Positions 9,107 through 23,041 are shown, counted from the stretch's first letter. The stretch: 64,000 nt of DNA from an uncultured virus (IMG/VR IMGVR_UViG_3300022841_000001) (IMGVR_UViG_3300022841_000001), one strand, 5' to 3'. The notes: generated by a model not told the origin, from the letters alone. Program-made: numbers and translations.

Positions 9107-9412
9107 TCAATTCATTTCACTATGTACCCAATTAGCGAGAGTCTCTAAAAAGTCTTTCTTTTTTTTATCATCTAATTTAAAATACTCGTGGCTTACTTTA
9201 CATATTTCTTTATTATCATTTTCAGTTATAATTAAAGGGGTTAATTCTGCTTCTTTACTGATGCCTAAATTACTGCCAACACCAGATAAAATTAATTGCT
9301 CGGCTCTGTCTTTTTTAATCAAGTCCTCTACAAATAATTGTATTTCATAATTGCCTTTTTCACTAAAACCATACTTGTAGTGTATTTCTTGAATTTTGTC
9401 CTGTATACTCAT
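9107..9412 (-). CDS. Hypothetical protein
   Basis: ORF in the operon. Confidence 0.6.
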   Translation of the reverse strand: MSIQDKIQEIHYKYGFSEKGNYEIQLFVEDLIKKDRAEQLILSGVGSNLGISKEAELTPLIITENDNKEICKVSHEYFKLDDKKKKDFLETLANWVHSEMN

Positions 9413-9429
9413 TGTCTATTTATTAAGGT

Positions 9430-9645
9430 TTATAATTTAGGTCTCTCTTTGTATTCTTTAATGAAGTTTAGGCCCCACTCGTATGCATCTTCAGGGTTAT
9501 CGAAGTGTCCCTTAACGTCCTCGGTAACCCAAGATGCTACACCTTTTCTAAGTACGCCAACTATAAATTGGTCTTGGTACCTAGCCATAACCGTCACATT
9601 TAGCCACCATCCTTCAGGAGTAATTCTCCACGGTATACTACCCAT
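9430..9645 (-). CDS. Hypothetical protein
   Basis: TAATG stop/start coupling with the upstream gene. Confidence 0.65.
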   Translation of the reverse strand: MGSIPWRITPEGWWLNVTVMARYQDQFIVGVLRKGVASWVTEDVKGHFDNPEDAYEWGLNFIKEYKERPKL

Positions 9646-10040
9646 TACTTTACAAAGAATTCAATAAGAAACAATCTAGGCGCTACGCTTATGTATACTA
9701 TGTTGTATATATTAGTAAATAAGAAAGCTACGCCTGCTACTGAAAAAATAAGAAACGGAATAATCATCAGAACAAAATGTCCCTTCCTACCAAAAAGAAG
9801 AATCTCATCGTAATCTAAACCCTCTCCGTCATACTTCTCAGACCCTAAGTGGCAAGTAAACCTAGCTAGTAAAAGGAAAATAATAGCCAATAATATGCCA
9901 AGACAAAACCTCAATGTATGCCACATATAAAACTCTTGTAGTAATTGTGGTGCCTGCTCCATAACAAACTCACCTGTCTTCTCGGCTACATTTAAAGCCT
10001 TCTCTAAAATAATTCCTAACTGCTCTTCTAATTTATTCAT
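9645..10040 (-). CDS. Membrane protein (2 TM)
   Basis: Two long hydrophobic segments; F(V)MEQAPQLLQE segment. Confidence 0.7.
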   Translation of the reverse strand: MNKLEEQLGIILEKALNVAEKTGEFVMEQAPQLLQEFYMWHTLRFCLGILLAIIFLLLARFTCHLGSEKYDGEGLDYDEILLFGRKGHFVLMIIPFLIFSVAGVAFLFTNIYNIVYISVAPRLFLIEFFVK

Positions 10041-10061
10041 AATTTATCTATTTAATTTAAT

Positions 10062-10301
10062 TTAAAACACATCAACACACCATATTGGTGTCTTCTCCCC
10101 TACATAAGCACCGCTTACGTTGTATGAGAAATACTCCAAAGCATCCTCCTGAGACATATCCTCCATAAGTATTGCTATACATAAAGCAACCGAGTATATG
10201 AGCCTCATACTATGCTCGTCAATTCCAATTACTGCGGAGTCAAATCCGTCAGCCTTTAATAGCTCCTCTTCACTAAAAATCTCTACTATATCTTCTAACA
10301 T
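10062..10301 (-). CDS. Conserved phage hypothetical protein (start MLEDIVE)
   Basis: LLKADGFDSAVIG...LIYS...EDALEYFSYNVSGAYVGEKTPIW pattern recognised from phage proteins; ATG at 10301 avoids overlap with the upstream gene. Confidence 0.75.
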   Translation of the reverse strand: MLEDIVEIFSEEELLKADGFDSAVIGIDEHSMRLIYSVALCIAILMEDMSQEDALEYFSYNVSGAYVGEKTPIWCVDVF

Positions 10302-10321
10302 TCTATTTATTTTACACTTTA

Positions 10322-10615
10322 TTAATAACCACGTAACTCCACAAACTCCGTCCAACTTGCTTTACCTGCGTGCCTAACCCTCATAAAACCAGCCTTTCTT
10401 ATGTCTTCAATAAAAACCTTATCTACATCATCAGCATAGCGATTAAGTGTAATTAGATTATTATATAGCCTAGTAGAACAAATAGTTAGTTTATCCCATT
10501 TTAATATATTTGTTTTGTCAGAATTATCAATAAGTTTTTTATGGTTATCAAATATCTGTGCTTGGTACTCCTCTATGACGTCTAACGCATCATTGTATTC
10601 CTCTCTTGTTCTCAT
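10322..10615 (-). CDS. RNA polymerase alpha-CTD-like protein
   Basis: CSTRLYNNL...IEDI...FMRVRHAGKASWTEF parallels the alpha-CTD pattern LSVRxxNxL...xxxxNxGxKSLxE. Confidence 0.7.
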   Translation of the reverse strand: MRTREEYNDALDVIEEYQAQIFDNHKKLIDNSDKTNILKWDKLTICSTRLYNNLITLNRYADDVDKVFIEDIRKAGFMRVRHAGKASWTEFVELRGY

Positions 10616-10625
10616 ATATATTATT

Positions 10626-13046
10626 TTAAAAATCCATATCTAGTTCTCCGTTAGTCTCCAATTCGTGCTTGCTTCTGAACTGTATCCAGTTTCCAGGAGC
10701 ATCCCTTCCAATTTCAGGTTTGCATCCGTATTTGAATTTAGCATAAGCATCTAGAAACTTTCCGAACTTTGTATTTGAAATTGGTCTTGAACCGAAACGT
10801 TTCGCATCAGGACACGCCTCTAGAAAATCAAGAAATAGATAGTTTATGTAAATCTTTCTGCCTTTTCCAAGCATACTATTTTCATCCCTACCTTCTCCAA
10901 GGCCACACCAGTAAGCAAAATCATTATTAGTCCCCACCATAAACGCTTTTAGTTTTTGGTTTTTAAAATTTGCCTTAATTAATCCGTGCTTCATATAAAT
11001 TTGTAGACACGTAATCATATAATTATCAAATGCACACCACTCTTCATCATCCCACTCACCAAACATCAATCGACCTAAATCTATTAACGGAGTCATACCA
11101 TTCGTATAGAACTGTGATAATTCTAATTCCCATTTCCTTCTCTCAAACGATGACCCTTCTCCAGTAATTGCGTAATTTGTAGTTATTGCAACTTTTGGAG
11201 ACTTATCAAAAGGAATCTTTATGGCATCTTTATTTTTTTTCTCAAGGGTCAATCCTTCGGTAACCAATGAAAATAATCTCTCAAAATCAAAGAACTTTTT
11301 TACATCATCAAAGCATAATATTTGCGTGTCTGCTGAAACTAACTGGTAAGCAAAGCTCTTCTCAAAATTAAACGACTTACCATCAATAACAACAAGTTTC
11401 TTCATATGACCTAATGCACTCATAAATAATCCTTTACCAGTACCTCCTTCAGGATTGTCTGATATAACCTCATCATTTAATATCACTGCTGGTGAATAGG
11501 ATAGATTTTTCCAAGCGTGTAACATATAACCTATTGTACTTCTAAATGAATCTACAATAAGCTCATCCTTGTTAGATATGTTGAAGATAAATTTACCGTA
11601 ATCACACCCTTTAGTATCACAAACATTAAACTCCCTATCAATTACGTGGTCTTTCCAAACATACCCACCGAGATCTAAATAGTCAATTATTTTAACCTCT
11701 CCACGTTTTACTTGAACTGCTCCGTTTCTGTAGTATAGGTAAGCATTATCTTTGTCGTCTTCAATGAAGTGAACATCAGCAGAAGAAAGAAGTGTTAGAA
11801 ATTCATCTCTAAAAAACCTAGTGCTTTCAGCAAAGTAATTATAAATACTGTAGTCATCTAGCTTCAGCAGGTACTGTAAAACGAAGTCTTTTATTTCCTT
11901 GTCAGATGTGTGGTCTATCAAGTTATCTGTTACTTTTACAAACACAAAACTTTTACTTCCAGTTGGATTAAATTTGTGAAATCCATTAGTCTCTAGAAAC
12001 TCTTTGAAGAATATTGGTACTATTTTAACTACCCCTTTATCGCTTTTTGTCCAAAACTGGTATACTTTATTCGCCTGGTCTAATTGCTCAATCACTTTTT
12101 TAGCAGTCGAAGGGTCGACCTCTTCATCTTCCAGTTCTGATTGAATCTCTTTTTTTGACACTCCACGCTTTAATTTCATTCTAACATTCTGTACCTTCTC
12201 CTCATCCTCGTAGTACTTTGTTCCGAAATTTGCAGTTTTAGAGTAAGCGCTTTTTATTGTTCGCTTTATTTCTTCTGCAGTAAATGTTGAGTCTTGATAA
12301 TTGGTTAAAAATATGTTTTCAGCAAGCGAACTAGCTATACCAAAATCATTAAAAGCAGAGGCCAATACATATGTCTTAGTGTTTCTACTTCCTTCAACCC
12401 AAGGATACTTTTTAGTCCACCATTTTACCAGTATTTCAACAATCTTGTTTTCATCAGTAACTGGTATTGTTATTGTATCTATACTTTTCGTAATCTCTAC
12501 ATATTCTTCCTCCTCTATCTTGTCCCATAAACTTGACACTTCATTGATGTGTATTAATGGGTCGTAGGATTCATAGCAGACTCGTGAGACGTTTTTACAA
12601 GATTTATCAAAGTTGTCACTGTTGAAATGATTTTGAAGGCTTAGGAAGTAGTTTTTATGGTTATCTACGTCTTTAGGAATCTTGACCAGCGCTTTTAATC
12701 CATTCCCACTAGGTGAAACAAATACAGAGTATACAAATTTGTCCTTAGACAATCTCTGCTTCTCTTGCAACATCTCCTTGTTAGTCTTGTATTCATCAAA
12801 GTCTAAACAAATTAATCCACTGTGGTCTACTAGAGCATTGTCCGCTCTTTTACTAAATGTTCCACTGAAACAAATTGCTGGTAATTTTGCTTTTAATATA
12901 TTCCTAGATTCTTTATCCTTTTCTGTTCTGATTTTTTTTACAATATCTTTTGAGGCACCTTCTCTAATTCTTCCTAGTATTAATTTTACATCTCTATAGA
13001 AAGGTTGAGAGGTTTGTTTTATATCTTTAAAAATAGTGATATCCAT
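10626..13046 (-). CDS. Primase-helicase (BT4734/VirE-N-like primase domain, PriCT-like region, SF3-type helicase)
   Basis: KAKLPAICFSG, HSGLICLDFD, SPSGNGLK, RVCYESYDP; EGSRN; GGTGKG Walker A, FDD Walker B, ITTN. Confidence 0.9.
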   Translation of the reverse strand: MDITIFKDIKQTSQPFYRDVKLILGRIREGASKDIVKKIRTEKDKESRNILKAKLPAICFSGTFSKRADNALVDHSGLICLDFDEYKTNKEMLQEKQRLSKDKFVYSVFVSPSGNGLKALVKIPKDVDNHKNYFLSLQNHFNSDNFDKSCKNVSRVCYESYDPLIHINEVSSLWDKIEEEEYVEITKSIDTITIPVTDENKIVEILVKWWTKKYPWVEGSRNTKTYVLASAFNDFGIASSLAENIFLTNYQDSTFTAEEIKRTIKSAYSKTANFGTKYYEDEEKVQNVRMKLKRGVSKKEIQSELEDEEVDPSTAKKVIEQLDQANKVYQFWTKSDKGVVKIVPIFFKEFLETNGFHKFNPTGSKSFVFVKVTDNLIDHTSDKEIKDFVLQYLLKLDDYSIYNYFAESTRFFRDEFLTLLSSADVHFIEDDKDNAYLYYRNGAVQVKRGEVKIIDYLDLGGYVWKDHVIDREFNVCDTKGCDYGKFIFNISNKDELIVDSFRSTIGYMLHAWKNLSYSPAVILNDEVISDNPEGGTGKGLFMSALGHMKKLVVIDGKSFNFEKSFAYQLVSADTQILCFDDVKKFFDFERLFSLVTEGLTLEKKNKDAIKIPFDKSPKVAITTNYAITGEGSSFERRKWELELSQFYTNGMTPLIDLGRLMFGEWDDEEWCAFDNYMITCLQIYMKHGLIKANFKNQKLKAFMVGTNNDFAYWCGLGEGRDENSMLGKGRKIYINYLFLDFLEACPDAKRFGSRPISNTKFGKFLDAYAKFKYGCKPEIGRDAPGNWIQFRSKHELETNGELDMDF

Positions 13047-13069
13047 TGTATGTTGGTTATTTATTAATT

Positions 13070-13236
13070 TGTGTTGATTTTAAAATGCTAATTACCTATA
13101 GTATAACCACTTAATGTATTCTATGTTAATAATGTTGATTTTTTGTCAAAATAATGCAGTTGATTTTAACTATTAAGCTTACTATATATGGTAAATACTT
13201 TTTTTAAAAAACTGAAAAAACGAACATAATCAACAT
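13070..13236. other. Putative replication origin element A
   Basis: ATGTTAATAATGTTGATTTTT arm, AT-rich spacer, inverted AACATAATCAACAT arm; directly upstream of the primase gene; paralogue at 24229-24343. Confidence 0.5.
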
Positions 13237-13263
13237 AATCGCTCTTTTTAGCACAGTTTTTAG

Positions 13264-13288
13264 AAAAAGAAAGGGGCGTAAGCCCCTT
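13264..13288 (-). terminator. Intrinsic terminator after the SSB gene
   Basis: AAGGGGC-N4-GCCCCTT hairpin followed by TCTTTTT on the minus strand. Confidence 0.75.
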
Positions 13289-13310
13289 GTCTTCATTTTT
13301 TTAGTTCAGC

Positions 13311-13538
13311 CTAGAAGTCATCGTCCTTCTTTTCTTTAGCTTCCCAAGTATCTAATTCTAAATATGGTTTCCCATTCTTAGACATTAATACATTCATATT
13401 GACCCAGCCATTTTTGGCATTGTCATTTAAAAATTTTGTTGCCTCTTCTACTTTACAACTTAAGTTACCAATTACGAATTCAGGTGCATCGTCTCTTCTT
13501 TTCCAAGAGAATCCGTCTGCAAAAATTTTGTCTGCCAT
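13311..13538 (-). CDS. Small single-stranded DNA-binding protein (probable)
   Basis: Short beta-rich protein with acidic DDDF tail, downstream of the Sak3 and exonuclease genes. Confidence 0.6.
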   Translation of the reverse strand: MADKIFADGFSWKRRDDAPEFVIGNLSCKVEEATKFLNDNAKNGWVNMNVLMSKNGKPYLELDTWEAKEKKDDDF

Positions 13539-13539
13539 T

Positions 13540-13722
13540 TTACTTATTTTTAATTATTATTTTTTGTTCCAATAGATTAATTGTAGAGTATATTATTTGA
13601 TTCCTTTCCTCTACGGATTTACAAGATAGTGGAAACTCTATACTTATAGTCCTTTCCTTCTTTGATAGACTCTTTTTAAAGAGTTTGCCTATGTATGTAA
13701 TTAAAGATGTCTTCTGTTGCAT
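13540..13722 (-). CDS. Hypothetical protein (start uncertain)
   Basis: Fills the gap in the operon. Confidence 0.45.
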   Translation of the reverse strand: MQQKTSLITYIGKLFKKSLSKKERTISIEFPLSCKSVEERNQIIYSTINLLEQKIIIKNK

Positions 13723-14413
13723 TGTCGCTAAAAAATTTATGATAAATCTCCATTGCTTTCTCTACTTTGTTTTGCCCACTCTCTAAGAAACTTGGTGAGC
13801 ATTCAAATATTCCTAACTTACCAGTAGCTTTGTCTATAACAAAGAATACAAGGGGTTTTCCGAATAATCTTTGGTAGATGTATGCTTGGCTATCATAGTT
13901 GTAAGTTTTAGCGCTATACATAAACTTGTCGATATCTGAGGTGGTTTTGATGTCAATTATAAGGTTATGCTTATGGTTTATGATATCACTCTTACCTTTC
14001 CAGTCCAGTCCCATTATGTTTTGGACGGCAGGAACTTCAAACTCATTACCTTCAGCGTAGATGTATTCACACATCTCCATATTAGAAGACATAATATCAC
14101 ACAAGTGGTCTAAGTTCTGTTTTTCCTTCAGTAGTAAAACTATCTCCCCTTCAGGGCAGGCATCTTTATACTTTTTAGTAGCACGAGTTGATGCATCGAT
14201 TACATCATACTGGTCTAGCTTGTGTGGCTCCAGCATTTTAGTATGGAAGTAACCACCTTCTAACATAGGTTTCGTTTTCTCTTGAGGAATCCTAAACTGG
14301 GTAGGATTCTTTAGTAGATTATAAAGGTCTGAGTTTGATAGATACTGTCTACCAAACTGTCCATAGTAATCTTTGTCATCTCTTAGTCTTTCAAGGACTT
14401 CAGCATTATTCAT
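13676..14413 (-). CDS. PD-(D/E)XK exonuclease (RecE/DUF3799-like)
   Basis: LSNSD, G-x-x-FH-x-x-x-LEP, KGKSD, DIKTT and YDSQAYIY motifs. Confidence 0.88.
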   Translation of the reverse strand: MNNAEVLERLRDDKDYYGQFGRQYLSNSDLYNLLKNPTQFRIPQEKTKPMLEGGYFHTKMLEPHKLDQYDVIDASTRATKKYKDACPEGEIVLLLKEKQNLDHLCDIMSSNMEMCEYIYAEGNEFEVPAVQNIMGLDWKGKSDIINHKHNLIIDIKTTSDIDKFMYSAKTYNYDSQAYIYQRLFGKPLVFFVIDKATGKLGIFECSPSFLESGQNKVEKAMEIYHKFFSDNATEDIFNYIHRQTL

Positions 14414-15092
14414 TTGGCGTATCTTTTAAGTCAACTGCCTTCTGAAGTTCAGTCTTAATCGTCTCCTTTATATCGTACTTTGTGCCAAGAGTTTTAAGGA
14501 TTGTAGGCAAGCCTTTCTCTTTATGTCTAGCAACATAGCTAAGTACTGTCACCCAGTTTGCGTCACCGATATCTAAGGTTAAGAACTTTGGTTCTTTCTT
14601 ATCCACCTTTGCAATAGAGGTAGCCTCAGCCTTCTCATTCACTTTAGACTCTGTCTCATTCTCAGGTAAATCTTCACCTGCGTAGATGTAGATACCTAAT
14701 CCAAACATAGCTAAGTTTTTCACCATACATCTCATTAAGGTTTTGTTTATGTCAATCGTTGTAGCCGACTCAACATCCTTCTCACCGTACTTTGTCTTGT
14801 ACTTGTAAGGAGCTTTCTTCATAGACTTGTTTGCTCCGTTCATTACTGGAAGCCACATTTCTAAGGTCTCACCCTCGATAGTTACGGCACTGTGGCACAT
14901 AAATCCTAAAGCCTCATCATAGGTTGTTTCACCCATCTTGTATGTAGCATCAGGACACGCCTTTTTTACTTCAGACCAAGCCCAAGCCCAAGATAGGTAG
15001 GTAAGTCCTGATTTCTTCTCCGTTTTAGCGTTGACATTAATCGCTGACAATTTTTCGAAGGTCGTCAGTTCCTTTTCTTTAGTGTTTCCCAT
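14406..15092 (-). CDS. Sak3/DUF1071-type ssDNA-annealing recombinase
   Basis: LTYLSWAWAW, MWLPVM, INKTLMRCMVKNLAMFGLGIYIYAGEDLP. Confidence 0.9.
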   Translation of the reverse strand: MGNTKEKELTTFEKLSAINVNAKTEKKSGLTYLSWAWAWSEVKKACPDATYKMGETTYDEALGFMCHSAVTIEGETLEMWLPVMNGANKSMKKAPYKYKTKYGEKDVESATTIDINKTLMRCMVKNLAMFGLGIYIYAGEDLPENETESKVNEKAEATSIAKVDKKEPKFLTLDIGDANWVTVLSYVARHKEKGLPTILKTLGTKYDIKETIKTELQKAVDLKDTPNE

Positions 15093-15119
15093 TTGATTTA
15101 ATTTAACTTGATTACTAAT

Positions 15120-15503
15120 TTATTTTAATTTCAATTTATAAGATGCATACTTCAAAAGTACCTCATCCCTTTTCTTTTTTAGATTCTTAATATGCTTATC
15201 ATTTTTTCTAGTATTGACTTCAGTCTTAATACTATCCTCGATAAGATTTAGCTTGTGCAGGCAGTTTTCTATAGAAATAAACAAACAACCTTTTCGCCAT
15301 CCGTTCCTGCAGAATATATTATACTCCTCATCACTACACTCTTTGTAATACATACCTCCTTTGTTGGTATTTAAGATCTCAATACGGTCTCTGAATTTTT
15401 GAATTTTAATACCCATACCTATAACGCTATGCGATTTATCATCCTTCGAGTGTGTTTTATTTAAAGCTATTGCCTCATTAAAAACATCATCTAAAGTACG
15501 CAT
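15120..15503 (-). CDS. Hypothetical protein
   Basis: ORF in the operon. Confidence 0.7.
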   Translation of the reverse strand: MRTLDDVFNEAIALNKTHSKDDKSHSVIGMGIKIQKFRDRIEILNTNKGGMYYKECSDEEYNIFCRNGWRKGCLFISIENCLHKLNLIEDSIKTEVNTRKNDKHIKNLKKKRDEVLLKYASYKLKLK

Positions 15504-15504
15504 A

Positions 15505-15798
15505 TTATTCGTTGGTTATTTCTTGAACCAACCTCTTGTAGTCCGAATCAGAATCAATCATTTTCTTTGCTTTGTTATACCCATACTTTATAGTAGTACG
15601 GTAAACTTTTAATCCATTGTCCAGCATAAATTGTGATATGTGGCTTATTTTAATTGGTCTTTCTACACATAAGTAGTATAAGAAATATCTTGCATCCACT
15701 ACATTTTCGTGATTGTCTTTGGTGTACATCTCTTCAAGTGTAATTGAGAATTTTATCGATACGGCTTTTGCGTATTTTTCGAATATGCTTCTTTTCAT
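15505..15798 (-). CDS. DnaA C-terminal (domain IV)-like HTH protein
   Basis: VSIKFSITLEEM...VVDARYFLYYL...ISHISQF...RTTIKYGYNK matches the DnaA_C pattern. Confidence 0.75.
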   Translation of the reverse strand: MKRSIFEKYAKAVSIKFSITLEEMYTKDNHENVVDARYFLYYLCVERPIKISHISQFMLDNGLKVYRTTIKYGYNKAKKMIDSDSDYKRLVQEITNE

Positions 15799-15914
15799 TA
15801 TGTTATATATTTAGTCTTATTTGTATCCAGTGTACTACTCATTGTCCATTCAGGTATGCCTCCACTGGGAGTTGTTACCCATTGATTTTGCCAGTCCTCT
15901 CTTGAAATTGTCAT
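15798..15914 (-). CDS. 38-aa hypothetical protein (start MTISRED)
   Basis: ATG at 15914 with an A-rich leader, downstream of the terminator; TAATG coupling to the next gene. Confidence 0.5.
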   Translation of the reverse strand: MTISREDWQNQWVTTPSGGIPEWTMSSTLDTNKTKYIT

Positions 15915-15935
15915 TGTATTATTGATTTGTATCAC

Positions 15936-15962
15936 AAAAACCCCCACACTTTCGTATGGAGG
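15936..15962 (-). terminator. Intrinsic terminator or attenuator
   Basis: CCTCCATAC-GAAA-GTGTGGGGG-TTTTT: 9-bp stem with two G-U pairs, GNRA loop and U tract. Confidence 0.8.
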
Positions 15963-15969
15963 CGGTTGC

Positions 15970-15992
15970 TTGAGAATCAACTACAATTCAAC
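15970..15992 (-). ncRNA. Candidate antisense seed hairpin in a 3' UTR, complementary to the early-gene initiation motif
   Basis: GAAUU-GUAGUU-GAUUC hairpin; AAUUGUAGUUGAUU is complementary to AAUYAACUACAAU upstream of several early start codons. Confidence 0.45.
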
Positions 15993-16154
15993 TTATATTC
16001 CTAGTGGATATTCATCCTCGTCCTCTTCTTCACTGGTAGTTGTATCCTGAGTTGAGTTACTATTACTTTGCTCATTCAGGTCTATGCTCATTGCTTGAAG
16101 AGCCTTGTTTGCTGGGTTGAGTCCTATGAAAAACTCCTTTAAATTGTCGTGCAT
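15993..16154 (-). CDS. 53-aa acidic protein (not in ORF track)
   Basis: MHDNLKEFFIGLNPANKALQAMSIDLNEQSNSNSTQDTTTSEEEDEDEYPLGI directly downstream of a promoter. Confidence 0.6.
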   Translation of the reverse strand: MHDNLKEFFIGLNPANKALQAMSIDLNEQSNSNSTQDTTTSEEEDEDEYPLGI

Positions 16155-16186
16155 AATTTAGTTAAAATTTGATTATATTTCGTTCA

Positions 16187-16216
16187 CAAATATAGTATAA
16201 AATATACATAATACAA
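16187..16216 (-). promoter_or_regulatory. Bacteroidota sigma70-type promoter (middle/replication genes)
   Basis: TTG-N19-TATATTTG, matching the -33/-7 consensus TTG...TAnnTTTG. Confidence 0.8.
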
Positions 16217-16224
16217 GTATAACT

Positions 16225-16812
16225 CTATGAATTTATTTTATTAATAGCATCAACTAGCTCTTGAAGATGTCCTTTGGATGCATACTTATGCTCCTCTCGA
16301 ATCTGCTCAAGCTCTTCTTTTTCACACCCTTCATAGTTATATGATAGGTTTTCCATCCAGTTACTCACATCGCTTTCGTAGTAGTATTCGTGTGCCGTCA
16401 TTTCTCTATGTAAAACAATGCCTTTGTGACCAATAGAAACAAATCCTGCAAAATCCATACCTGATTCTTCATACTCCATTTCTGCAGTCAGTTTGTATTT
16501 CTTACAAATTGCCTCTATTAGTTTTATTGGTGGCGACCAAGCCGAATCTCCTGAGACAATCATATCCTCGTCCCTGAAATAATCTCTTTCGTGAATCTCA
16601 AAATCCCACCACTTCGTGCCATAGTCGTATGGCTCAGCCAACCTGACTGAAGCAAGCCAAGCCTTATTATCAATCTCTGACAAGTCCAGAACAAAATCTC
16701 CAAACTCTGTAAAATAATTGACGTCATCATACTTGTCAAATTTATCTTGTAACTTTCTTAGCGATTCGTTGCTCCCATCGAAGCACACGTAATTATAACA
16801 ATTGTTTGCCAT
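16225..16812 (-). CDS. DUF1281/YubB ferredoxin-like protein
   Basis: MANxCYN, YGTKW, DSAWSPP and YEESGMDFAG motifs. Confidence 0.75.
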   Translation of the reverse strand: MANNCYNYVCFDGSNESLRKLQDKFDKYDDVNYFTEFGDFVLDLSEIDNKAWLASVRLAEPYDYGTKWWDFEIHERDYFRDEDMIVSGDSAWSPPIKLIEAICKKYKLTAEMEYEESGMDFAGFVSIGHKGIVLHREMTAHEYYYESDVSNWMENLSYNYEGCEKEELEQIREEHKYASKGHLQELVDAINKINS

Positions 16813-16813
16813 C

Positions 16814-17275
16814 TTATTTGTTTTTAGTAACTATTAATTCAATCTCTTTATCTCTAATAACTAACCTATTTCCCTCCTCTAGCTCGTCTAAGGAATCTTT
16901 TATATCATCATAACTGTGACAGTCTTTAATAAAATAGAAGTCCATCAGGTACTCTATTGTATCGTATATGTCTAAATCTTCTTCAGTGTTCGTGTATGAC
17001 TTGTTTGCTATGTGTTCACCAGTCTGTTTGAATTTGACATCAAACGTTTCCTCGGTGCTTTTAAGTTCCATTAAGTTTTCTGAAATGTCACGTATTGCAA
17101 ACCAAACTGCATCCATTGTGCTTTCGCAGGTTAAAGCAACGTGTAAAATGCTTTCTGCCTGCTCCTTGGTACATTTGTAATTATCCTGCACATCTTTGAG
17201 ATGCCATAAACCCTCAACATAGTACCCTTTGCTTTCTAAAAATTTCTTTGCACTTTCTTCTGTAATTTCACTCAT
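16814..17275 (-). CDS. Hypothetical early protein (acidic)
   Basis: Start preceded by AACTACA. Confidence 0.75.
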   Translation of the reverse strand: MSEITEESAKKFLESKGYYVEGLWHLKDVQDNYKCTKEQAESILHVALTCESTMDAVWFAIRDISENLMELKSTEETFDVKFKQTGEHIANKSYTNTEEDLDIYDTIEYLMDFYFIKDCHSYDDIKDSLDELEEGNRLVIRDKEIELIVTKNK

Positions 17276-17307
17276 TGTAGTTAATTTAAATTATTGACTT
17301 ATTGTCG

Positions 17308-17348
17308 TGGATAGGGAGGAATCGAACCTCCCAAGCACCTTGCTACCC
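17308..17348 (-). ncRNA. Mini tRNA-like element 1 (acceptor stem plus T-arm, no anticodon arm)
   Basis: GGGTAG-CAAGGTGCTTG-GGAGG-TTCGATT-CCTCC-CTATCC-A. Confidence 0.8.
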
Positions 17349-17349
17349 T

Positions 17350-17541
17350 TTACTTTCTAGCTTTTGCTAGTGACCTATTGACTAAAGCAATCAAGTCATA
17401 CAAGTGATGTTTCTCATCACTTCCTATTCGCTGACTCCAAGAGAGCATACCTTTAAGGTCGTGTCTCAATTCATTCAGGTCGCCAACAATCATCTTCATA
17501 GTTCTATTGGTCTTATCTAACTCCGCCTTCACGTCCTGCAT
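17350..17541 (-). CDS. Hypothetical early protein
   Basis: Packed ORF. Confidence 0.65.
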   Translation of the reverse strand: MQDVKAELDKTNRTMKMIVGDLNELRHDLKGMLSWSQRIGSDEKHHLYDLIALVNRSLAKARK

Positions 17542-17544
17542 ACC

Positions 17545-17811
17545 TTAAGAATTTAGGTGGTTATTGTTTACTATGTAAATCTCAGTCTCTACGCTCTGCG
17601 TTGATGAGTTCCATTCCTGAATAATCAGGTCGTAGTTCAGGTGCTTTGCATTGCAGGAAACTAGCAGGTCGTTCAGTTCATCCATTTCAGTTAGACGGAA
17701 ACTTCTATCTGTTGGTATCCTATCTCTTACTCCTCTCCTATCGTCACAACGAAATTCGTAGTAAACCTTGTTACTTGATATTAACTCTAAAATACTTCTT
17801 GGTGTTGCCAT
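17545..17811 (-). CDS. Hypothetical early protein
   Basis: Packed ORF. Confidence 0.7.
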   Translation of the reverse strand: MATPRSILELISSNKVYYEFRCDDRRGVRDRIPTDRSFRLTEMDELNDLLVSCNAKHLNYDLIIQEWNSSTQSVETEIYIVNNNHLNS

Positions 17812-17813
17812 AA

Positions 17814-17930
17814 TTATCTGTTTTTTAACTCTGTTTGTAATTGGTCTACTAGCTCCCTAGCGACATCTAACTCCTTCGGCTCTAAATGAAATCCATTTAG
17901 TAATTGCGTTATTATTTGTAAATCTTTCAT
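17814..17930 (-). CDS. 38-aa hypothetical protein (start MKDLQII)
   Basis: ATG at 17930 follows the upstream stop; the longer track ORF overlaps its neighbour. Confidence 0.55.
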   Translation of the reverse strand: MKDLQIITQLLNGFHLEPKELDVARELVDQLQTELKNR

Positions 17931-17934
17931 AGTT

Positions 17935-18312
17935 TTATCCGTATATAACTTCGCCAAAAATAACACACTGCAATACGCAGTCTGCATCAAAAGCATCGTC
18001 TCGTTCATTAATAATATTAAACAATGTATCCGGGTCGACTTTCGGGACTCCGGTAAGAACACTTTCTAAAACTATTTTAGTGAAATCATCATCACCAGCC
18101 TCCTCGTCCACAAAAGACAATGAATTACCGTCAAGCAGGATTTGCATCAGGACATCTTCATAACACCCATCCATCACTTTATCTTTAGCTGATTTGTAGT
18201 CTTCCATTTCGTACACTAGTCCTATACCGTAATAATGCATCTGAGACAGTCCATTGCATAATGAAGTGTGAAATACTCCTAAAATTTCTTCTCTTGTTAA
18301 TTTGATTTCCAT
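17935..18312 (-). CDS. Hypothetical early protein
   Basis: C-terminal DAFDADCVLQCVIFGEVIYG pattern recognised from phage early proteins. Confidence 0.75.
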   Translation of the reverse strand: MEIKLTREEILGVFHTSLCNGLSQMHYYGIGLVYEMEDYKSAKDKVMDGCYEDVLMQILLDGNSLSFVDEEAGDDDFTKIVLESVLTGVPKVDPDTLFNIINERDDAFDADCVLQCVIFGEVIYG

Positions 18313-18319
18313 AATTTAT

Positions 18320-18727
18320 TTATAAGTGTGTTAAACATTGATTGCAAAACGAAAAATCGTCTTGGTTATGCGTGTTAATACTTCCACATTTGTGGCATTT
18401 GTGACCCTCTTCCATAGAGACATCACAGTAGTAATCTCTGTTGATTATCTCGATAGCTAGATGCTCGATATAAATATCACTCATACTCTGTTCCGTCTCT
18501 AGCCAAATGTCACCATCTCGCTCAAGTAAGAATCTCTGAATAATATTATCCTCGTTTATCTCTGTAGCTATTTCCTCTATAGCTTCAGTAGACTGGATGT
18601 TGTCCAAGGGCATTGTTTGGCTAGGCATTCTTACCCTTGTGCGCTCCCAAGCTCTTGCACTATGTATCAAAATGATGTTGTAAATTTCTCTATCAAAATA
18701 CAACCGTGTTTCTAAATCTATTTCCAT
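18320..18727 (-). CDS. Hypothetical protein with C-terminal Zn ribbon
   Basis: CHKC...CNQC. Confidence 0.7.
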   Translation of the reverse strand: MEIDLETRLYFDREIYNIILIHSARAWERTRVRMPSQTMPLDNIQSTEAIEEIATEINEDNIIQRFLLERDGDIWLETEQSMSDIYIEHLAIEIINRDYYCDVSMEEGHKCHKCGSINTHNQDDFSFCNQCLTHL

Positions 18728-18729
18728 AT

Positions 18730-18960
18730 CTAATTGTGTTTATTTTCCTGAGCATACTCATATAACGCATCCATAAAAGAGTCTTCTAGTAAGTCCATAT
18801 AGAATCTAGTAATATCCATTCCATCCAGCATAACACTGGTCACCTCTAATTCATCTTCAGGAGGTGCAAATCTGTCCTCGTCATTCCATTCGTAATCGTA
18901 TTCAATGATTAACTCGTATCCAAACGGCTCTCCTACTGTGTAAATTCCTTTTGTCTTCAT
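18730..18960 (-). CDS. Small acidic early protein
   Basis: Packed ORF, very acidic. Confidence 0.7.
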   Translation of the reverse strand: MKTKGIYTVGEPFGYELIIEYDYEWNDEDRFAPPEDELEVTSVMLDGMDITRFYMDLLEDSFMDALYEYAQENKHN

Positions 18961-18971
18961 ATCTATCTTTT

Positions 18972-19205
18972 TTAATGGTTAAACATATCTTCCCAGCCAT
19001 CTACTCCTTGTGATACTCCTCCAGCTCTGCTGGGGAATTCTCTTTGAATATAGTCTGTCACATAATACTCTTGGTCTGTAAATGACTCACTTAAATCTGT
19101 GCAGTACTCATCAGCATCTTCTCTTGTTGAAAATCCATCCTGATTCATCTCACCTTGTCCGTGGTTATTGACCCACATTACCTTGTACATTGTTGTTCTC
19201 TTCAT
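18972..19205 (-). CDS. Small acidic early protein
   Basis: Start preceded by AATCAACTACA. Confidence 0.7.
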   Translation of the reverse strand: MKRTTMYKVMWVNNHGQGEMNQDGFSTREDADEYCTDLSESFTDQEYYVTDYIQREFPSRAGGVSQGVDGWEDMFNH

Positions 19206-19242
19206 TGTAGTTGATTTTAATCTCTGCCAAAATCGGCATTGT

Positions 19243-19283
19243 TGCTGGAGGAGGAATCGAACCTCTTTACATCCAATCCAGCA
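19243..19283 (-). ncRNA. Mini tRNA-like element 2
   Basis: (T)GCTGGA-TTGGATGTAA-AGAGG-TTCGATT-CCTCC-TCCAGC-A. Confidence 0.8.
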
Positions 19284-19291
19284 TTGGGTAT

Positions 19292-19789
19292 TTACCCACC
19301 ATAATTACTATCTATCCAGTCACACAATATGTTCCTATTGTTATCGTCCAGCTCCATAAATAACTTGAAGAAGTTAAGTGTTCCACCAAAACTATTACTG
19401 GCGTTTAGACTCGTCCATTTAGAAGTTATGTGACCAGTCATATGCTCATTGTTTGACCAAACTTTCTGTATCCAGTCGTGAGGAAAATTGTTGGCGAAGT
19501 ACATAAATTTAATGATGTTGGAATTGCCTACAAAAACTGGCTCAACAACCTCAATCTCTTCAGACTCCCATTCTGTCCATAGGTATTCTTCGTTATTATA
19601 AGACTCATTTAGTAGGAATTCATCCGACAAAACCTCATCACCTTTTGATGTTATTTGTCTAGACTTAATCCATTGTATCAAGTCTGCTTCATATTTAAAT
19701 ATCTCGCCATCTTCACAAAGATATCCTTCAAAAATTCCTGCTCCAGTTGCGCTACACGTTCTTGGAAATACTACGTTTTGTTTTGTCAT
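19292..19789 (-). CDS. Hypothetical early protein
   Basis: 165-aa ORF, apparently two domains. Confidence 0.75.
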   Translation of the reverse strand: MTKQNVVFPRTCSATGAGIFEGYLCEDGEIFKYEADLIQWIKSRQITSKGDEVLSDEFLLNESYNNEEYLWTEWESEEIEVVEPVFVGNSNIIKFMYFANNFPHDWIQKVWSNNEHMTGHITSKWTSLNASNSFGGTLNFFKLFMELDDNNRNILCDWIDSNYGG

Positions 19790-19794
19790 AATTT

Positions 19795-19908
19795 CTATCT
19801 GTTTACTACGTTATAATTTGATGCTTTTGATGAACACTGGAAGCTTCCACAACTTGAAAACATTACCAATATAATTAACACTACTACTACTTTTAATTGT
19901 CTACTCAT
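19795..19908 (-). CDS. 37-aa lipoprotein (not in ORF track)
   Basis: MSRQLKVVVVLIILVMFSS|CGSFQCSSKASNYNVVNR: basic N-region, hydrophobic core, lipobox FSSC. Confidence 0.65.
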   Translation of the reverse strand: MSRQLKVVVVLIILVMFSSCGSFQCSSKASNYNVVNR

Positions 19909-19924
19909 TTTATCTATTTTTAAA

Positions 19925-20257
19925 TTAATATGCTGATGTTGCTCTTTTTTGAATGTTTTCAAATGTATCGTCCTCGTCTCTGTAATCCCTAGTTAAATTG
20001 TGGTAATACTTCATCAACTCTTTACCTATAGAGTCTAGCTCACCGAATCTGTCCACATACTGTAGTTGTAGCATTACATTAGATTCTTGAGACCTAATGG
20101 TATCATTCACCTGAATAGCTCCCATCATTCCACCACCTAAGTAGTTTTGATATGCCGACATTTTGTGACCCTTGAATCCTATTGATGTTAAACTAATTTC
20201 AACACCTCCACCTCTAGTTGAGGTTTCTTTTCTTACTGTCATTTTCTTAAAGTTCAT
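19925..20257 (-). CDS. Hypothetical early protein
   Basis: Start preceded by AACTACA; immediately downstream of hammerhead 1. Confidence 0.75.
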   Translation of the reverse strand: MNFKKMTVRKETSTRGGGVEISLTSIGFKGHKMSAYQNYLGGGMMGAIQVNDTIRSQESNVMLQLQYVDRFGELDSIGKELMKYYHNLTRDYRDEDDTFENIQKRATSAY

Positions 20258-20273
20258 TGTAGTTATAATTTAA

Positions 20274-20326
20274 GTTAATAACCACCATTGCTGGTGGTTT
20301 TCATCCTTCAGGAATCATCAGTTAAC
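20274..20326 (-). ncRNA. Type I hammerhead ribozyme 1
   Basis: GUUAA-CUGAUGA-UUCC UGAA GGAU-GAAA-ACCACCA GCAA UGGUGGU-UA-UUAAC; predicted cut after UUA, between 20279 and 20278. Confidence 0.9.
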
Positions 20327-20444
20327 CACTTACTGTTATTGTACCATTGGCGTAATGACTACATATTAATCCAGTTGGTAGTACTACCACCTTTACTTGT
20401 TTTGATTTAAAAATCGACTTTACTTTTCTTGCTATTAGTTTCAT
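20322..20444 (-). CDS. 40-aa basic protein (not in ORF track)
   Basis: MKLIARKVKSIFKSKQVKVVVLPTGLICSHYANGTITVSG; its stop codon lies in ribozyme stem I. Confidence 0.55.
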   Translation of the reverse strand: MKLIARKVKSIFKSKQVKVVVLPTGLICSHYANGTITVSG

Positions 20445-20445
20445 A

Positions 20446-21126
20446 TTATTCTAGTGTTTCTAATCTTTCGTTAACTTCTTTTAATGTGTATGTTTTTTCG
20501 CTATCTACGTAGTCTCTAAACTCTTCGATATAGCCTTCACTTATGTCTTGCCTCAGTTCGTAGTCGTCTTTATACTCAGACAGATACTCGTGAATTATTC
20601 CTTCAGAATGGTCGCCATATTTGAACAACTTAGCATCCGTGTATCCTCCTCTAGCATCTGCACCATTGTGTATCTGAATAAGAATATACTCCTCATCATT
20701 TATGGTTAGGTTAGAACCCTGAAGTATCTGAGACAAATCACTGTCACCGTTATAAGTGTTCCAGACTCTCTGCTCAATAACATCATTCTCAAAGGAGTTA
20801 ATGTGGTCAAATGCATTCCTGCTCACTCCGTAAGATTCACAGTCAGAATTCCAATCATCAGACTCTTCCTGAATCTCGTTAAACTCATCGCATAAATCAT
20901 CCAGCTGGAGGTTATTGGTTAGGTAATGAAACACAGATACTGTCCTCATTATATCACCTCTTTCCCAGTCGAATTCATAAACCTCCATTTCTTCATTGTT
21001 AAAATCCTCAATGGTCTTCTTTTGGTTTCTTTGCCAGCCTCTGCCTTCAGAAAATCCACTGTCACCCATCGCTTTACCAGTATTTTCGGTAAGCATTCCG
21101 TAAACTAATTTTTGTACTTGATTCAT
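20446..21126 (-). CDS. Hypothetical early protein (acidic)
   Basis: MLTENTG...DSG...RGWQRNQ, NTYNGDSDLSQILQ and QIHNGADARGGYTD segments. Confidence 0.8.
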   Translation of the reverse strand: MNQVQKLVYGMLTENTGKAMGDSGFSEGRGWQRNQKKTIEDFNNEEMEVYEFDWERGDIMRTVSVFHYLTNNLQLDDLCDEFNEIQEESDDWNSDCESYGVSRNAFDHINSFENDVIEQRVWNTYNGDSDLSQILQGSNLTINDEEYILIQIHNGADARGGYTDAKLFKYGDHSEGIIHEYLSEYKDDYELRQDISEGYIEEFRDYVDSEKTYTLKEVNERLETLE

Positions 21127-21147
21127 AATTGTAGTTAATTTAATTTA

Positions 21148-21200
21148 AGTTAATAGCCATTCGAAAATGGCTTTCATCCTTCAGGAATCGTCAGTTAACT
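21148..21200 (-). ncRNA. Type I hammerhead ribozyme 2
   Basis: AGUUAA-CUGACGA-UUCC UGAA GGAU-GAAA-GCCAUU UUCG AAUGGC-UA-UUAACU; predicted cut after CUA, between 21154 and 21153. Confidence 0.9.
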
Positions 21201-21405
21201 ATATTTTAAAGGTTAATACCTCGTTTATGTCATCAATTTCATTCTGAGTGAACAATATGAAATCAGAACCTATAGCCTGCTGGATGCAGTTTAGGTAAGC
21301 TCTTTTTAATTCATTTTCTGTAGGGTAATACTCATTCAGAACCTCATCTTCCTTCCATCTTTCAAACATCTTAGTGTTTGCATCTAATAATTCTTTAAAA
21401 GTCAT
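21199..21405 (-). CDS. Hypothetical early protein
   Basis: ATG at 21405; stop overlaps hammerhead 2 stem I. Confidence 0.65.
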   Translation of the reverse strand: MTFKELLDANTKMFERWKEDEVLNEYYPTENELKRAYLNCIQQAIGSDFILFTQNEIDDINEVLTFKI

Positions 21406-21426
21406 AATCAATAATTTAAGTTAATA

Positions 21427-21660
21427 TTATATTCTTGGTACAAAGTGTTCGTCTTTAGACATCAGCCCAACAAAATCGTGCATCACGTCATCCTGAGAAA
21501 ATAAAGATTCATCATCAAATAGCCTTTCAGCCCATTCAGGATTGTCCATTATAAGTATTGCACAAACGCCTTCCCTCGTTAATCGCTGGATGTCTGCAAA
21601 GTGGTCTAGTATCCCATCAGGAATAAGATTGTAAAGTAATTCTTCTTTTAATTCATTCAT
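21427..21660 (-). CDS. Small acidic early protein
   Basis: Start preceded by AACTACAATT. Confidence 0.7.
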   Translation of the reverse strand: MNELKEELLYNLIPDGILDHFADIQRLTREGVCAILIMDNPEWAERLFDDESLFSQDDVMHDFVGLMSKDEHFVPRI

Positions 21661-21673
21661 AATTGTAGTTGTT

Positions 21674-21940
21674 TTAGTATAATTCAGAGTTTTCGATTAA
21701 TTTAACTTGGTATGCTGGTAGCTCATTGCAGTAATCTTGATACTTATCAAACGAGTCTTCACATTTCTTGTTTATCCTGCGCCATTCACTGGTCTCATTC
21801 TCCTGCTGACCCTCAATCTCATCACGCAGTATGTTGAACGCATTATACTTCTCCAGCCACTGGATGGCTCTATTTAAATTTACCTGATTCTTCTTTGCTT
21901 TAGCTATCATCTTAGTTGTTTTTATGTGATTCATATGCAA
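21674..21940 (-). CDS. Hypothetical early protein (start uncertain)
   Basis: Packed ORF. Confidence 0.65.
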   Translation of the reverse strand: MHMNHIKTTKMIAKAKKNQVNLNRAIQWLEKYNAFNILRDEIEGQQENETSEWRRINKKCEDSFDKYQDYCNELPAYQVKLIENSELY

Positions 21941-22169
21941 TCATATCGTAAGCTGGTGAGTAATACTTCACGGTGCCATTGATGGAATTAATCTTTTCTA
22001 TTTTTGCCTCCAGCTCTATCTTTTTTCGGTAATCACTGTGCAGTATCTTGCTTGCATCTTCCGTAGTATAGATGATTGCTGACACTAGATTTGATATCAA
22101 ATCACTGCCGTTATAATACGTTAATTTGTCCTCCGTTAATACGTTCATTACTGTTGCTGATGTCTTCAT
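21912..22169 (-). CDS. Hypothetical early protein
   Basis: Packed ORF. Confidence 0.65.
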   Translation of the reverse strand: MKTSATVMNVLTEDKLTYYNGSDLISNLVSAIIYTTEDASKILHSDYRKKIELEAKIEKINSINGTVKYYSPAYDMIAYESHKNN

Positions 22170-22171
22170 AA

Positions 22172-22426
22172 TTATCTTAGTTTATTAATTAATATTCCCT
22201 CTAATCCTATTGCTACTAACGTGAATACAGTTATCATCTGAATTTTCGTCCATACACTGTTGTAAATTTGGTCTACAGTCATATAGCTCTCACTGTGTAT
22301 CTGAATGTCCAGCAACAATAGATTGTCTATCTCTATTATTCTACTGTATAAATCAAATCCTAACACAAATCCTGATACTATAAATACTCCTAACCCAATC
22401 GCAATCACTATTCCTAAAATTCTCAT
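22172..22426 (-). CDS. Early membrane protein (2 TM)
   Basis: Hydrophobic N- and C-terminal segments. Confidence 0.7.
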   Translation of the reverse strand: MRILGIVIAIGLGVFIVSGFVLGFDLYSRIIEIDNLLLLDIQIHSESYMTVDQIYNSVWTKIQMITVFTLVAIGLEGILINKLR

Positions 22427-22458
22427 ATCAATCTATTTTTAATTATTGTTACTATTAG

Positions 22459-22498
22459 TAAGAGTGCAGGAATCGAACCTGCATTAACCATTACTCTT
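22459..22498 (-). ncRNA. Mini tRNA-like element 3
   Basis: AAGAGT-AATGGTTAAT-GCAGG-TTCGATT-CCTGC-ACTCTT-A. Confidence 0.85.
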
Positions 22499-22509
22499 GG
22501 AAATTCATA

Positions 22510-22920
22510 CTACTTGATATAATCCTCCAGCTCCTTCCAGTCAGCTTGTGCATCTACCTTTCTTTCCTGCTCACGTACATCATCAATCAACTTCCCAACA
22601 GCTCGAACAATGTCAGTAGCACAAGATGATGAAGACATAACTGGATTACCAGCTACAGTAGTTACCCTGAGTGACCAAGTCGAGTCACCATATCGCATCA
22701 TATCAAGCGCATTCTTCTCGCTATTCTTTGTGAATTGCATAATGTATTTGTCACTGGTGATTATTACTTTCCACATTGCCTTTGTTCCCTGATTGTCTGT
22801 GGTCTCTATCACTGCTCCATCACATAGCATTCTATATGCTAGCTTTACATAGTCATATTCCATTTGGGTCATCTTTGATGCATTGAATTTCGGCATTACT
22901 ACTTTGATTGTGTTTCTCAT
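22510..22920 (-). CDS. Hypothetical early protein
   Basis: 136-aa ATG ORF. Confidence 0.75.
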   Translation of the reverse strand: MRNTIKVVMPKFNASKMTQMEYDYVKLAYRMLCDGAVIETTDNQGTKAMWKVIITSDKYIMQFTKNSEKNALDMMRYGDSTWSLRVTTVAGNPVMSSSSCATDIVRAVGKLIDDVREQERKVDAQADWKELEDYIK

Positions 22921-22922
22921 AA

Positions 22923-23027
22923 TTATTGGTTTCTTTTGTTATCGGTTAAAGTTATTATTATTAGTACTATTAAGGTGATAAATATCACTGGTATCATAAT
23001 GTTGGTAAACGTGTTAAGCATAATCAT
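22923..23027 (-). CDS. 34-aa single-TM peptide, probable first early gene (not in ORF track)
   Basis: MIMLNTFTNIMIPVIFITLIVLIIITLTDNKRNQ with an A/T-rich leader. Confidence 0.55.
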   Translation of the reverse strand: MIMLNTFTNIMIPVIFITLIVLIIITLTDNKRNQ

Positions 23028-23041
23028 AGTTATTAAATTAG

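Follow-up and report, generated by a model that had tools for sequence, protein, structure and literature searches.

A promoter-to-terminator unit among the leftward genes of an uncultured phage

We analyzed a 64,000-nt stretch of DNA, given as one strand, from an uncultured virus (IMG/VR IMGVR_UViG_3300022841_000001; hereafter the window), with a focus on a short minus-strand unit at 16194-15935 in which motifs delimit a promoter, a small open reading frame (ORF), a conserved non-coding block and a terminator, and which is a candidate gene for a small regulatory RNA (sRNA) antisense to start regions of the phage's own genes. The window has a G+C content of 35%, and its genes lack Shine-Dalgarno (SD) sequences, their leaders being A/T-rich and of the type ...AAATT-ATG; SD sequences are described as absent in members of the host phylum (PMC6847099). 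Together with the sigmaA-type -7 box of the unit, the SD-less genes point to a Bacteroidota-like host. Leftward (minus-strand) genes occupy ~7.3-24.1 kb, many small ORFs coming first and replication and recombination genes thereafter, and rightward genes from 24.4 kb on encode GroEL and structural proteins.

A first-pass annotation of this DNA had proposed a consensus promoter, a strong terminator, an acidic 53-aa peptide and, between its stop codon and the terminator, a seed sequence pairing with five start regions. The promoter (region 16187..16216, minus strand) stands, but a Bacteroidota sigmaA -7 box, TATATTTG, at 16194-16187, is the better reading of it; this box is conserved in relatives. 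No other intergenic TAnnTTTG lies on the minus strand from 6.5 to 24.6 kb, and a box of this type also precedes seven plus-strand genes (24368, 27014, 27460, 39444, 45647, 49228 and 58304). Because the sigmaA box of Flavobacterium lies at -12..-5 (PMC9723704), we predict a transcription start at ~16182 and, from there, an RNA of ~247 nt. The intrinsic terminator (15935..15963, minus strand) was recovered by terminator detection where it had been placed, with a stem at 15963..15940 of ten pairs, five of them G-C, a four-nucleotide GAAA loop and a T-run.

The peptide is encoded at 16154..15993 on the minus strand, again as annotated, and reads MHDNLKEFF...SEEEDEDEYPLGI, with the C-terminus ...EYPLGI. 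Relatives carry 25 distinct peptides of this small-ORF family, with the C-terminus [Y/I/V]PLGI. Since PLGI is kept even though all four of its codons differ synonymously between the window and relatives, we regard the ORF as coding, which makes the dual function suggested at first plausible; the sRNA interpretation as a whole is partly supported by the results below. Searches of Pfam and PHROG with the 53-aa peptide gave no match, and the Atlas gave no usable hit. In the window as in the peptide family, these small acidic proteins end in an acidic run followed by the [Y/I/V]PLGI motif. Acidic C-terminal tips are typical of single-strand DNA-binding proteins, and it is a speculative thought that the tail mimics such a tip.

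Between the stop codon and the terminator lies the best-conserved non-coding stretch of the unit (15966..15992, minus strand; alignments A1 and A3), GUUGAAUUGUAGUUGAUUC(UC)AAGCAA. It contains the seed segment AAUUGUAGUUGAUU (= AATTGTAGTTGATT) exactly where it had been reported, at 15988..15975, and within this the core UUGUAGUUGA (15986-15977), which is invariant in 23 variants. The 3' region of the RNA folds better than expected (z = -4.0), and RNAalifold on the 23 sequences showed compensatory changes at two terminator stem pairs and left the seed unpaired in the consensus. In the window alone, a single-sequence fold places a weak hairpin over the seed (15989-15974), the centroid being GAAUU-[GUAGUU]-GAUUC, to which the minimum free energy (MFE) fold adds a G-U pair that reduces the loop to 4 nt. 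The seed-in-loop arrangement of the first-pass annotation thus matches the centroid fold of this 3' region but does not extend to the whole family: L067/L070-type lineages have a single-stranded seed (fully so in the L069/L070 types) that lies 5' of a different, extra strong hairpin.

Only 25 nt separate the U-run of the terminator from the next ATG, at 15914. At least three downstream ORFs (15914-15120) have no promoter of their own upstream of a TACTTTTG box at 15160, so that read-through of the terminator is the only route visible in the sequence by which at least the next three ORFs could be transcribed, and would couple the sRNA to the start of the replication module.

Just before the unit promoter, ~100 nt upstream of the small ORF, loci L001-L015 carry two copies of a tandem direct repeat, TTTTTGGGTAYGGYRTCATATCTTTTT. 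It occurs in lineages of ~50% identity but not in the window, and a regulator may bind it.

The seed is complementary to five start regions

The five predicted pairings were reproduced exactly, in both helix length and number of G-U pairs. All targets lie on the minus strand. Target 1, CAACUACAAUU (21661..21671), stands directly before ATG 21660 (77-aa ORF) and forms an 11-bp helix; target 2, AAUUAACUACAAUU (21127..21140), precedes ATG 21126 (226-aa ORF) and forms a 14-bp helix with one G-U pair. The other three overlap their start codons: target 3, UAACUACAAU (20256..20265), at ATG 20257 (110-aa ORF; 10 bp, one G-U), target 4, AAUCAACUACAAU (19204..19216), at ATG 19205 (77-aa ORF; 13 bp, perfect), and target 5, AAUUAACUACAAU (17274..17286), at ATG 17275 (153-aa ORF; 13 bp, one G-U). 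As had been claimed, each duplex abuts or overlaps the AUG, and every one ends at or within it. The expectation that these five would rank at the top was borne out by helix length, as they are the five longest among 69 start regions of the window, but not entirely by RNAduplex energy, by which they rank 1, 3, 5, 7 and 14 of 69.

The minus strand of the window has 14 copies of AACTACA, the motif common to the targets; five stand directly before an ATG, and the seed is the motif's sole complement on the transcribed strand of the leftward block. As a control for chance, we took 2411 windows of 29 nt from the same transcribed strand and asked how many form helices of at least 10 bp with at least five start regions. 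This was the case for 0.58% of them, and those that succeed are U/G-rich intragenic stretches pairing with generic A-rich leaders. Taken alone, the count of five hits is suggestive, not decisive.

Seed and leader tag occur together in relatives

Using homology to the adjacent 195-aa protein, we gathered 16 viral and 80 metagenomic loci. Of the 87 loci examined (window included), 45 contain the unit, in 23 distinct sequences, and the unit family is abundant in marine metagenomes. After the 195-aa gene come the -7 box, the small acidic ORF, the conserved block and the terminator, with the next ATG ~25 nt on. The core UGUAGUUGA (= TGTAGTTGA) is unchanged in all 23 variants, the adjacent protein being 48-77% identical and the small ORF barely alignable except at its ends. 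Four sequence types have another ORF, hydrophobic and of 37 aa, just before the seed. Because the ORF differs in some lineages and the hairpin in others, the conserved module appears to be the seed plus the terminator at the 3' end of the RNA.

We then took loci with 2.5 kb or more of sequence upstream and scored them for two or more start-abutting copies of AAYUAYA, the generalized form of the target motif (hereafter the tag). At least two tags were present in 20 of 21 unit-bearing loci, whereas none of 14 unit-less loci had any. The unit-less, tag-less loci include L007, L102 and L106, in which the identity of the 195-aa protein (49%) equals that of unit-bearing loci. These loci are phylogenetically non-independent, with ~9 lineages carrying the unit. 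The sole exception among the 21 is an L070-type locus with 3 kb of upstream sequence (L083). Conservation of the seed wherever AACUACA is kept had been named at the outset as decisive for the sRNA: every relative with AACUACA leaders retains the seed, and such leaders are missing where the unit is missing. In relatives, the best complements of the cognate seed within the upstream block sit on ATGs that open ORFs of 46-244 codons. A pattern search of viral contigs for the L067/L070-type seed returned no match, and the 42 loci gathered by Sak homologues (L017-L058) contain no seed-like unit (up to two mismatches) beside a terminator.

The unit has three features expected of an sRNA: by motif, a -7 box promoter of its own and a covarying terminator around a short predicted transcript; a seed that is conserved and accessible; and complementary sites at several target starts that are conserved with the seed.

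The tag also varies in an informative way. Its C positions, which lie opposite G residues of the seed, have changed to U in several lineages (ACUAUA, AUUACA, AUUAUA) and once to A (L084); no change is seen at its U and A positions or in the seed. Such C-to-U drift in the targets against an unchanging seed is the pattern expected when one regulator serves many targets. In the L068/L069 lineage, the members of which are 97-98% identical where they overlap, AAU replaces AUU in the spacer and AUAUU replaces GAAUU in the seed flank; targets of this lineage form 12 perfect pairs with the cognate seed (12/0) versus 8/0 with the six window-type seeds, while a related L070-type seed ties at 12/0. In L063, an A-to-G change in the seed matches a U-to-C change in the target, a marginal case (11/1 versus 10/1). 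Co-variation of seed and target, proposed earlier as a check, is thus seen clearly once and weakly once, but the rest of the swap matrix is uninformative.

Hammerhead motifs and tRNA-like elements precede the targets

The targeted leaders adjoin candidate RNA processing sites that the first-pass annotation had not noticed. A descriptor search located a hammerhead motif with an open stem I before target 2 (21148..21200, minus strand) and a second motif before target 3 (20273..20327, minus strand), with cleavage predicted after A21154 and A20279, respectively. The predicted products, 5'-UUAACU...AACUACA(AUU)AUG, are the target leaders of 27 and 21 nt. Both motifs follow the same layout: stem I AGUUAA/UUAACU, core CUGAYGA, stem II, GAA, stem III (A first, U last) and an A at the cleavage position. 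The window and its relatives (e.g. L005:444-493, L008:2535-2583, L079:4457-4506, L132:974-1027 and L135:1758-1814) yielded 13 distinct ribozyme sequences in 18 ribozyme-plus-leader variants. The full core (C3 U4 G5 A6 N7 G8 A9 / G12 A13 A14 / A15.1-U16.1 / H17) is present in all 13, including both window copies, which carry U-U at 10.1/11.1. Stem II occurs in at least six sequences and stem III in seven, all paired, and stem I in six pairings; these counts were made by eye from the descriptor output, as the MAFFT alignment was not structure-consistent. The Rfam hammerhead models gave no match at gathering score, nor at E values up to 10 on 15500-24500. By descriptor and covariation we classify the elements before targets 2 and 3 as putative hammerhead ribozymes, with self-cleavage predicted. 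RNAs cut by hammerheads have 5'-OH ends; speculatively, such ends could make the ribozyme-cut messenger RNAs (mRNAs) long-lived and so create a need for active shut-off.

Other leaders carry tRNA-like elements instead. Upstream of target 4 lies a mini-helix (19242..19283, minus strand) with a 7-bp acceptor stem and the T-arm GAGG-UUCGAUU-CCUC, lacking D and anticodon arms, and upstream of target 5 an element (17307..17382, minus strand) that weakly matches the Rfam tRNA-Sec model (21.7 bits, E 1.3, below gathering); both are conserved in relatives. A further top half (22499-22458, minus strand) precedes ATG 22426. All three, before 19205, 17275 and 22426, consist of an acceptor stem and a GGUUCGAUUCC T-arm, and they fall into two classes conserved across relatives. 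ARAGORN called no tRNA in the window elements, and Rfam tRNA models scored the top halves at 18.5-21.7 bits, below gathering scores, with D and anticodon arms deleted; the Rfam scan as a whole found no family at gathering score and, at E values up to 10, only weak tRNA-like and spurious small nucleolar RNA hits. As none has a full cloverleaf with an anticodon, we describe them as tRNA-like top halves rather than tRNAs. They are plausible processing sites for RNase P and RNase Z.

Part of the sequence that the five start regions have in common, UUAACUUAAAUUA, derives from ribozyme stem I; the AACUACA tag does not. The tag is gene-specific, in that the class-A tRNA-like element bears it before some genes and never before the 195-aa gene. 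Likewise, hammerhead leaders carry the tag in 15 of 16 variants from seed-bearing lineages versus 0 of 2 from seed-less lineages. The tag is therefore not a by-product of the processing element.

A distant relative encodes a predicted RNA antisense to a different start motif

In locus L119 the 195-aa homologue is 39% identical, and unit and tag are both missing. Downstream of the homologue lies a stand-alone promoter-terminator pair (L119:8486-8562) predicted to yield an RNA of ~65 nt, with the sigmaA box TATATTTG at 8486-8493, a 40-nt body, a strong terminator and no ORF. The body, UUGUUUUCAUAGUUG, is antisense to CAAUUAUGAAAACAG, and the start motif it would target is AUGAAAACA / CAAUUAUGAAAACA, that is, the start codon and first codons. 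It forms helices of at least 10 bp with 9 of the 26 start regions of the locus, the longest being 15 bp and 14 bp (genes 3171 and 4235). Eight of the nine target genes begin with ATG-A/G-AA (seven with ATGAAA) and the ninth with ATGAAC. None of 971 control windows reached nine hits or a 15-bp helix (mean 0.44 hits), and four other pre-terminator regions of the locus gave 0-2 hits; a second promoter-terminator pair, at ~8999-9075, has no such complementarity. This is the result to be expected if phages of this kind read their own start regions with short terminator-ended RNAs. Among 17 other distant loci we found no convincing analogous pre-terminator antisense RNA (an AT-rich region of L016 gave four hits), and a loose pattern search of all loci for L119-like RNAs returned noise and L119 itself only.

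Proposed mechanism and alternative explanations

On balance we favor the reading that the unit is a gene for a trans-acting, base-pairing antisense regulatory RNA and also for a small protein; that it is expressed, that it represses and when it does so are predictions. Host RNA polymerase with sigmaA would start at ~16182, judging from the motif, and most transcripts would end at 15963-15935. UUGUAGUUGA and its flanks would then pair with the tag, (A/U/C)AAYUAYA(AUU)AUG, at the 3' end of short leaders of the leftward, putatively early genes, a step for which complementarity, conservation and seed-tag co-occurrence were all observed. The 10-14 bp duplex, spanning approximately -13 to +2, would keep 30S subunits from binding and/or expose the mRNA to cleavage; SD-less host ribosomes would need an open, A-rich start region, and the duplex would turn the genes down as the RNA accumulates. 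The targeted mRNAs would be cut from a long early transcript by the hammerheads and tRNA-like elements, so that the tag would sit on defined processed leaders, and terminator read-through into 15914-15120 would tie the RNA to the onset of the replication module. The leader of the small ORF itself, UUAACUAAAUUAUG (before 16154), is one C-to-A change away from the tag, and seed and 5' region could pair for weak self-regulation.

Several observations weigh against this reading. About five other places in 17 kb match the hit count through generic U/G-rich pairing. The swap test is weak, as AU-rich flanks let some non-cognate seeds out-pair the cognate ones, and there is only one clear-cut compensatory event. 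The L070-type lineage (L083, L082, L070 and L080) keeps the core with no tagged start in the 2-3 kb upstream, which either counts against the model or reflects short contigs. Window-type lineages can place much of the seed inside the weak hairpin, and the full-length MFE fold pairs the seed with the RNA's own 5' region, a fold of the 250-nt RNA that is no better than those of shuffled sequences (z = -0.95, not significant). The L119 analogue is a post hoc observation at one locus. Finally, we infer the early timing of the targets and the direction of regulation, and the existence of the RNA itself from motifs alone.

Of the other explanations, the one that survives best, unlikely as we judge it, is that the pre-terminator hairpin or sequence acts in cis, as a nut/put-like antitermination site or a stability element, and that AAYUAYA is an unrelated leader motif (an enhancer or a RegA-like repressor site) whose complementarity is fortuitous. 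Every lineage does have a hairpin immediately 5' of the terminator, including those in which the hairpin sequence is different, and the 25 nt between the U-run and ATG 15914 leave no room for a promoter, so that regulated read-through is plausible; moreover, L119 keeps AUUGUAGUA at the 5' end of its RNA without AACUACA leaders, and the L070-type lineage retains the seed with no visible target. This explanation nevertheless has to accept as coincidence that the block holds a 9-13 nt complement to the most start-enriched motif, that seed and tag co-occur strictly (20/21 versus 0/14) and that the targets drift in a wobble-compatible manner, with the L068/L069 compensatory change in addition, and it leaves unexplained an L119 RNA that is antisense to 9 of 26 starts.

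It is very improbable that one phage DNA-binding protein acting in either orientation (such as a repressor of early transcription or a replication factor) recognizes both motifs as double-stranded DNA sites. Related words do occur in both orientations in two regulatory-looking non-coding regions (TTGTGTTGATT at least five times in 24180-23917, AATCAAC three times in 13165-13079), and the block has 6-bp inverted arms, TTGAAT/ATTCAA. However, an indel distinguishes the seed from the repeats at 24 kb and 13 kb, and the tag is locked 0-4 nt from ATGs, its distance to promoters or processing sites not being fixed. In the targets, C residues opposite G vary to U, and three arm substitutions (A-to-G twice, C-to-U once) all yield G-U pairs, which makes sense on one RNA strand only, an argument that is weak alone (p ~0.2).

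Chance, in the form of a lone reverse-complement copy of a common leader word in a 3' untranslated region, is the least credible explanation of all: by our estimate, 64 kb of AT-rich DNA should hold numerous 13-nt inverted repeats, generic U/G-rich windows pair with many A-rich leaders as well, and the pattern was originally picked from a search of the whole window, but the core is invariant in 23 variants amid diverging surroundings, is the sole copy on the transcribed strand of the leftward block, is equaled by only 0.58% of control windows and co-occurs strictly with the tag. Collectively, the C-to-U drift, the one clear compensatory change and the different seed-target pair of L119 favor RNA-RNA pairing over chance.

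Genomic context

PHROG matches in the window comprise a helicase, a primase, a Sak-like annealing protein, an exonuclease, GroEL, tail fibres and a large virion protein. The primase/helicase matched phages of Flavobacterium, Cellulophaga, Nonlabens and Polaribacter, the best match being an uncultured podovirus record (MW202828.1; L059) at 60% amino-acid identity. No integrase or repressor was seen among 28 window ORFs compared with PHROGs and 13 compared with Pfam, and the phage looks virulent. In near and distant modes alike, nucleotide searches against the phage collection gave no match, and the nearest virus record (G001) does not span the region of the unit.

Approximately 1.4 kb of non-coding DNA (24400-22920, minus strand) separates the divergent gene blocks. 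Direct repeats of the TTGTGTTGATT type lie in it at 24180, 24149, 24023, 24003 and 23917, as do ATGTTGGTTATG repeats, and no TAnnTTTG box for the leftward block was found in it. Three copies of AATCAAC lie upstream of the primase (13165-13079). The repeats of both regions may represent iterons, an origin or operator sites. L059, the nearest GenBank relative, has a different repeated early-leader element, the perfect palindrome GTGTCGTTAACGACAC, which occurs 14 times in 4012-15436, mostly 15-35 nt before early-gene start codons; the L059 coding strand has no reverse-complement copy of the L059 leader word. We also considered the recurring leader as an early promoter for a crAss-like virion RNA polymerase. 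Early transcripts of phage phi14:2 are described as having no upstream motif in common (preprint 10.1101/2020.03.07.982082), and the 2097-aa ORF of the window has neither a DFDxD-type motif nor a Pfam match; we dropped this idea.

Comparison with known systems

If the proposed reading is correct, the unit would be a compact, sequence-programmable temporal switch that ties ribozyme- and tRNA-like-mediated mRNA processing to regulation through a common leader tag. It would also offer a natural test bed for base-pairing RNAs that block initiation on SD-independent ribosomes, and a portable tag-seed pair for gene control in Flavobacteriia.

The C4 (immI) RNAs of P1/P7 and the CI RNA of P4 serve immunity of temperate elements; they are cut, with involvement of RNase P, from the operon they regulate, and CI acts by premature termination. 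Like them, the RNA proposed here is a phage small RNA that would act in trans on more than one complementary site in the phage's own transcripts and shut down a gene block. Unlike them, it has its own host-type promoter, bears an ORF, is directed at the start regions of at least five separate genes and belongs to a phage that looks virulent. SgrS/SgrT, RNAIII and CpxQ are chromosomal and mostly Hfq-dependent RNAs of Proteobacteria or Firmicutes; they likewise combine a small-ORF mRNA with a conserved single-stranded seed by an intrinsic terminator and multiple start-region targets, whereas the present RNA is phage-encoded.

Within the SD-less phylum, base-pairing sRNAs have been described in Flavobacterium psychrophilum (Rfp18, for which one stem-loop region is predicted to serve several targets; PMC9723704) and Bacteroides thetaiotaomicron (GibS; PMC7366714). 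Their occurrence in this phylum speaks for the proposed reading. From these accounts, both resemble the RNA proposed here in kind and differ from it in being host-encoded and unrelated in sequence; the window unit has no Rfam match. Most phage sRNAs on record are cis-antisense RNAs from temperate phages or control host genes, according to the sections of a 2025 review covered here (PMC12197685), and in the phage-sRNA literature searched, these sections included, we found no lytic phage that uses one trans-acting seed over its own early-gene regulon.

Hammerheads flank genes in polycistronic RNAs of phages and prophages, a hammerhead in HF1/HF2 lying 13 nt before a start codon (Perreault et al. 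2011, PMC3088659). As in the examples given there, both motifs of the window are intergenic, lie in a phage gene block and are placed to cut a long RNA into gene-length mRNAs. The differences are that the leaders here carry a tag complementary to a phage RNA, that tRNA-like mini-helices alternate with the ribozymes and that the two copies have U-U.

Taken together, these features lead us to propose, tentatively and with somewhat more reserve than for the unit itself, that a clade of marine Flavobacteriia podophages runs an all-RNA early circuit, with dicing by ribozymes and tRNA-like elements, an AAYUAYA tag and a sigmaA-driven dual-function RNA that silences the tagged set. Seed and tag would have co-evolved, the L119 relative would use a stand-alone sRNA reading AUGAAAACA, and the circuit would be an RNA counterpart of T4 RegA/RegB. 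Both T4 factors are proteins, and RegB acts by cutting GGAG within SD sites. As with the translational repressor RegA and the endoribonuclease RegB of T4 (PMC3014915), a lytic phage would silence many early mRNAs through a short motif in the initiation region; in contrast to T4, the reader of that motif would be an RNA, and the host is SD-less.

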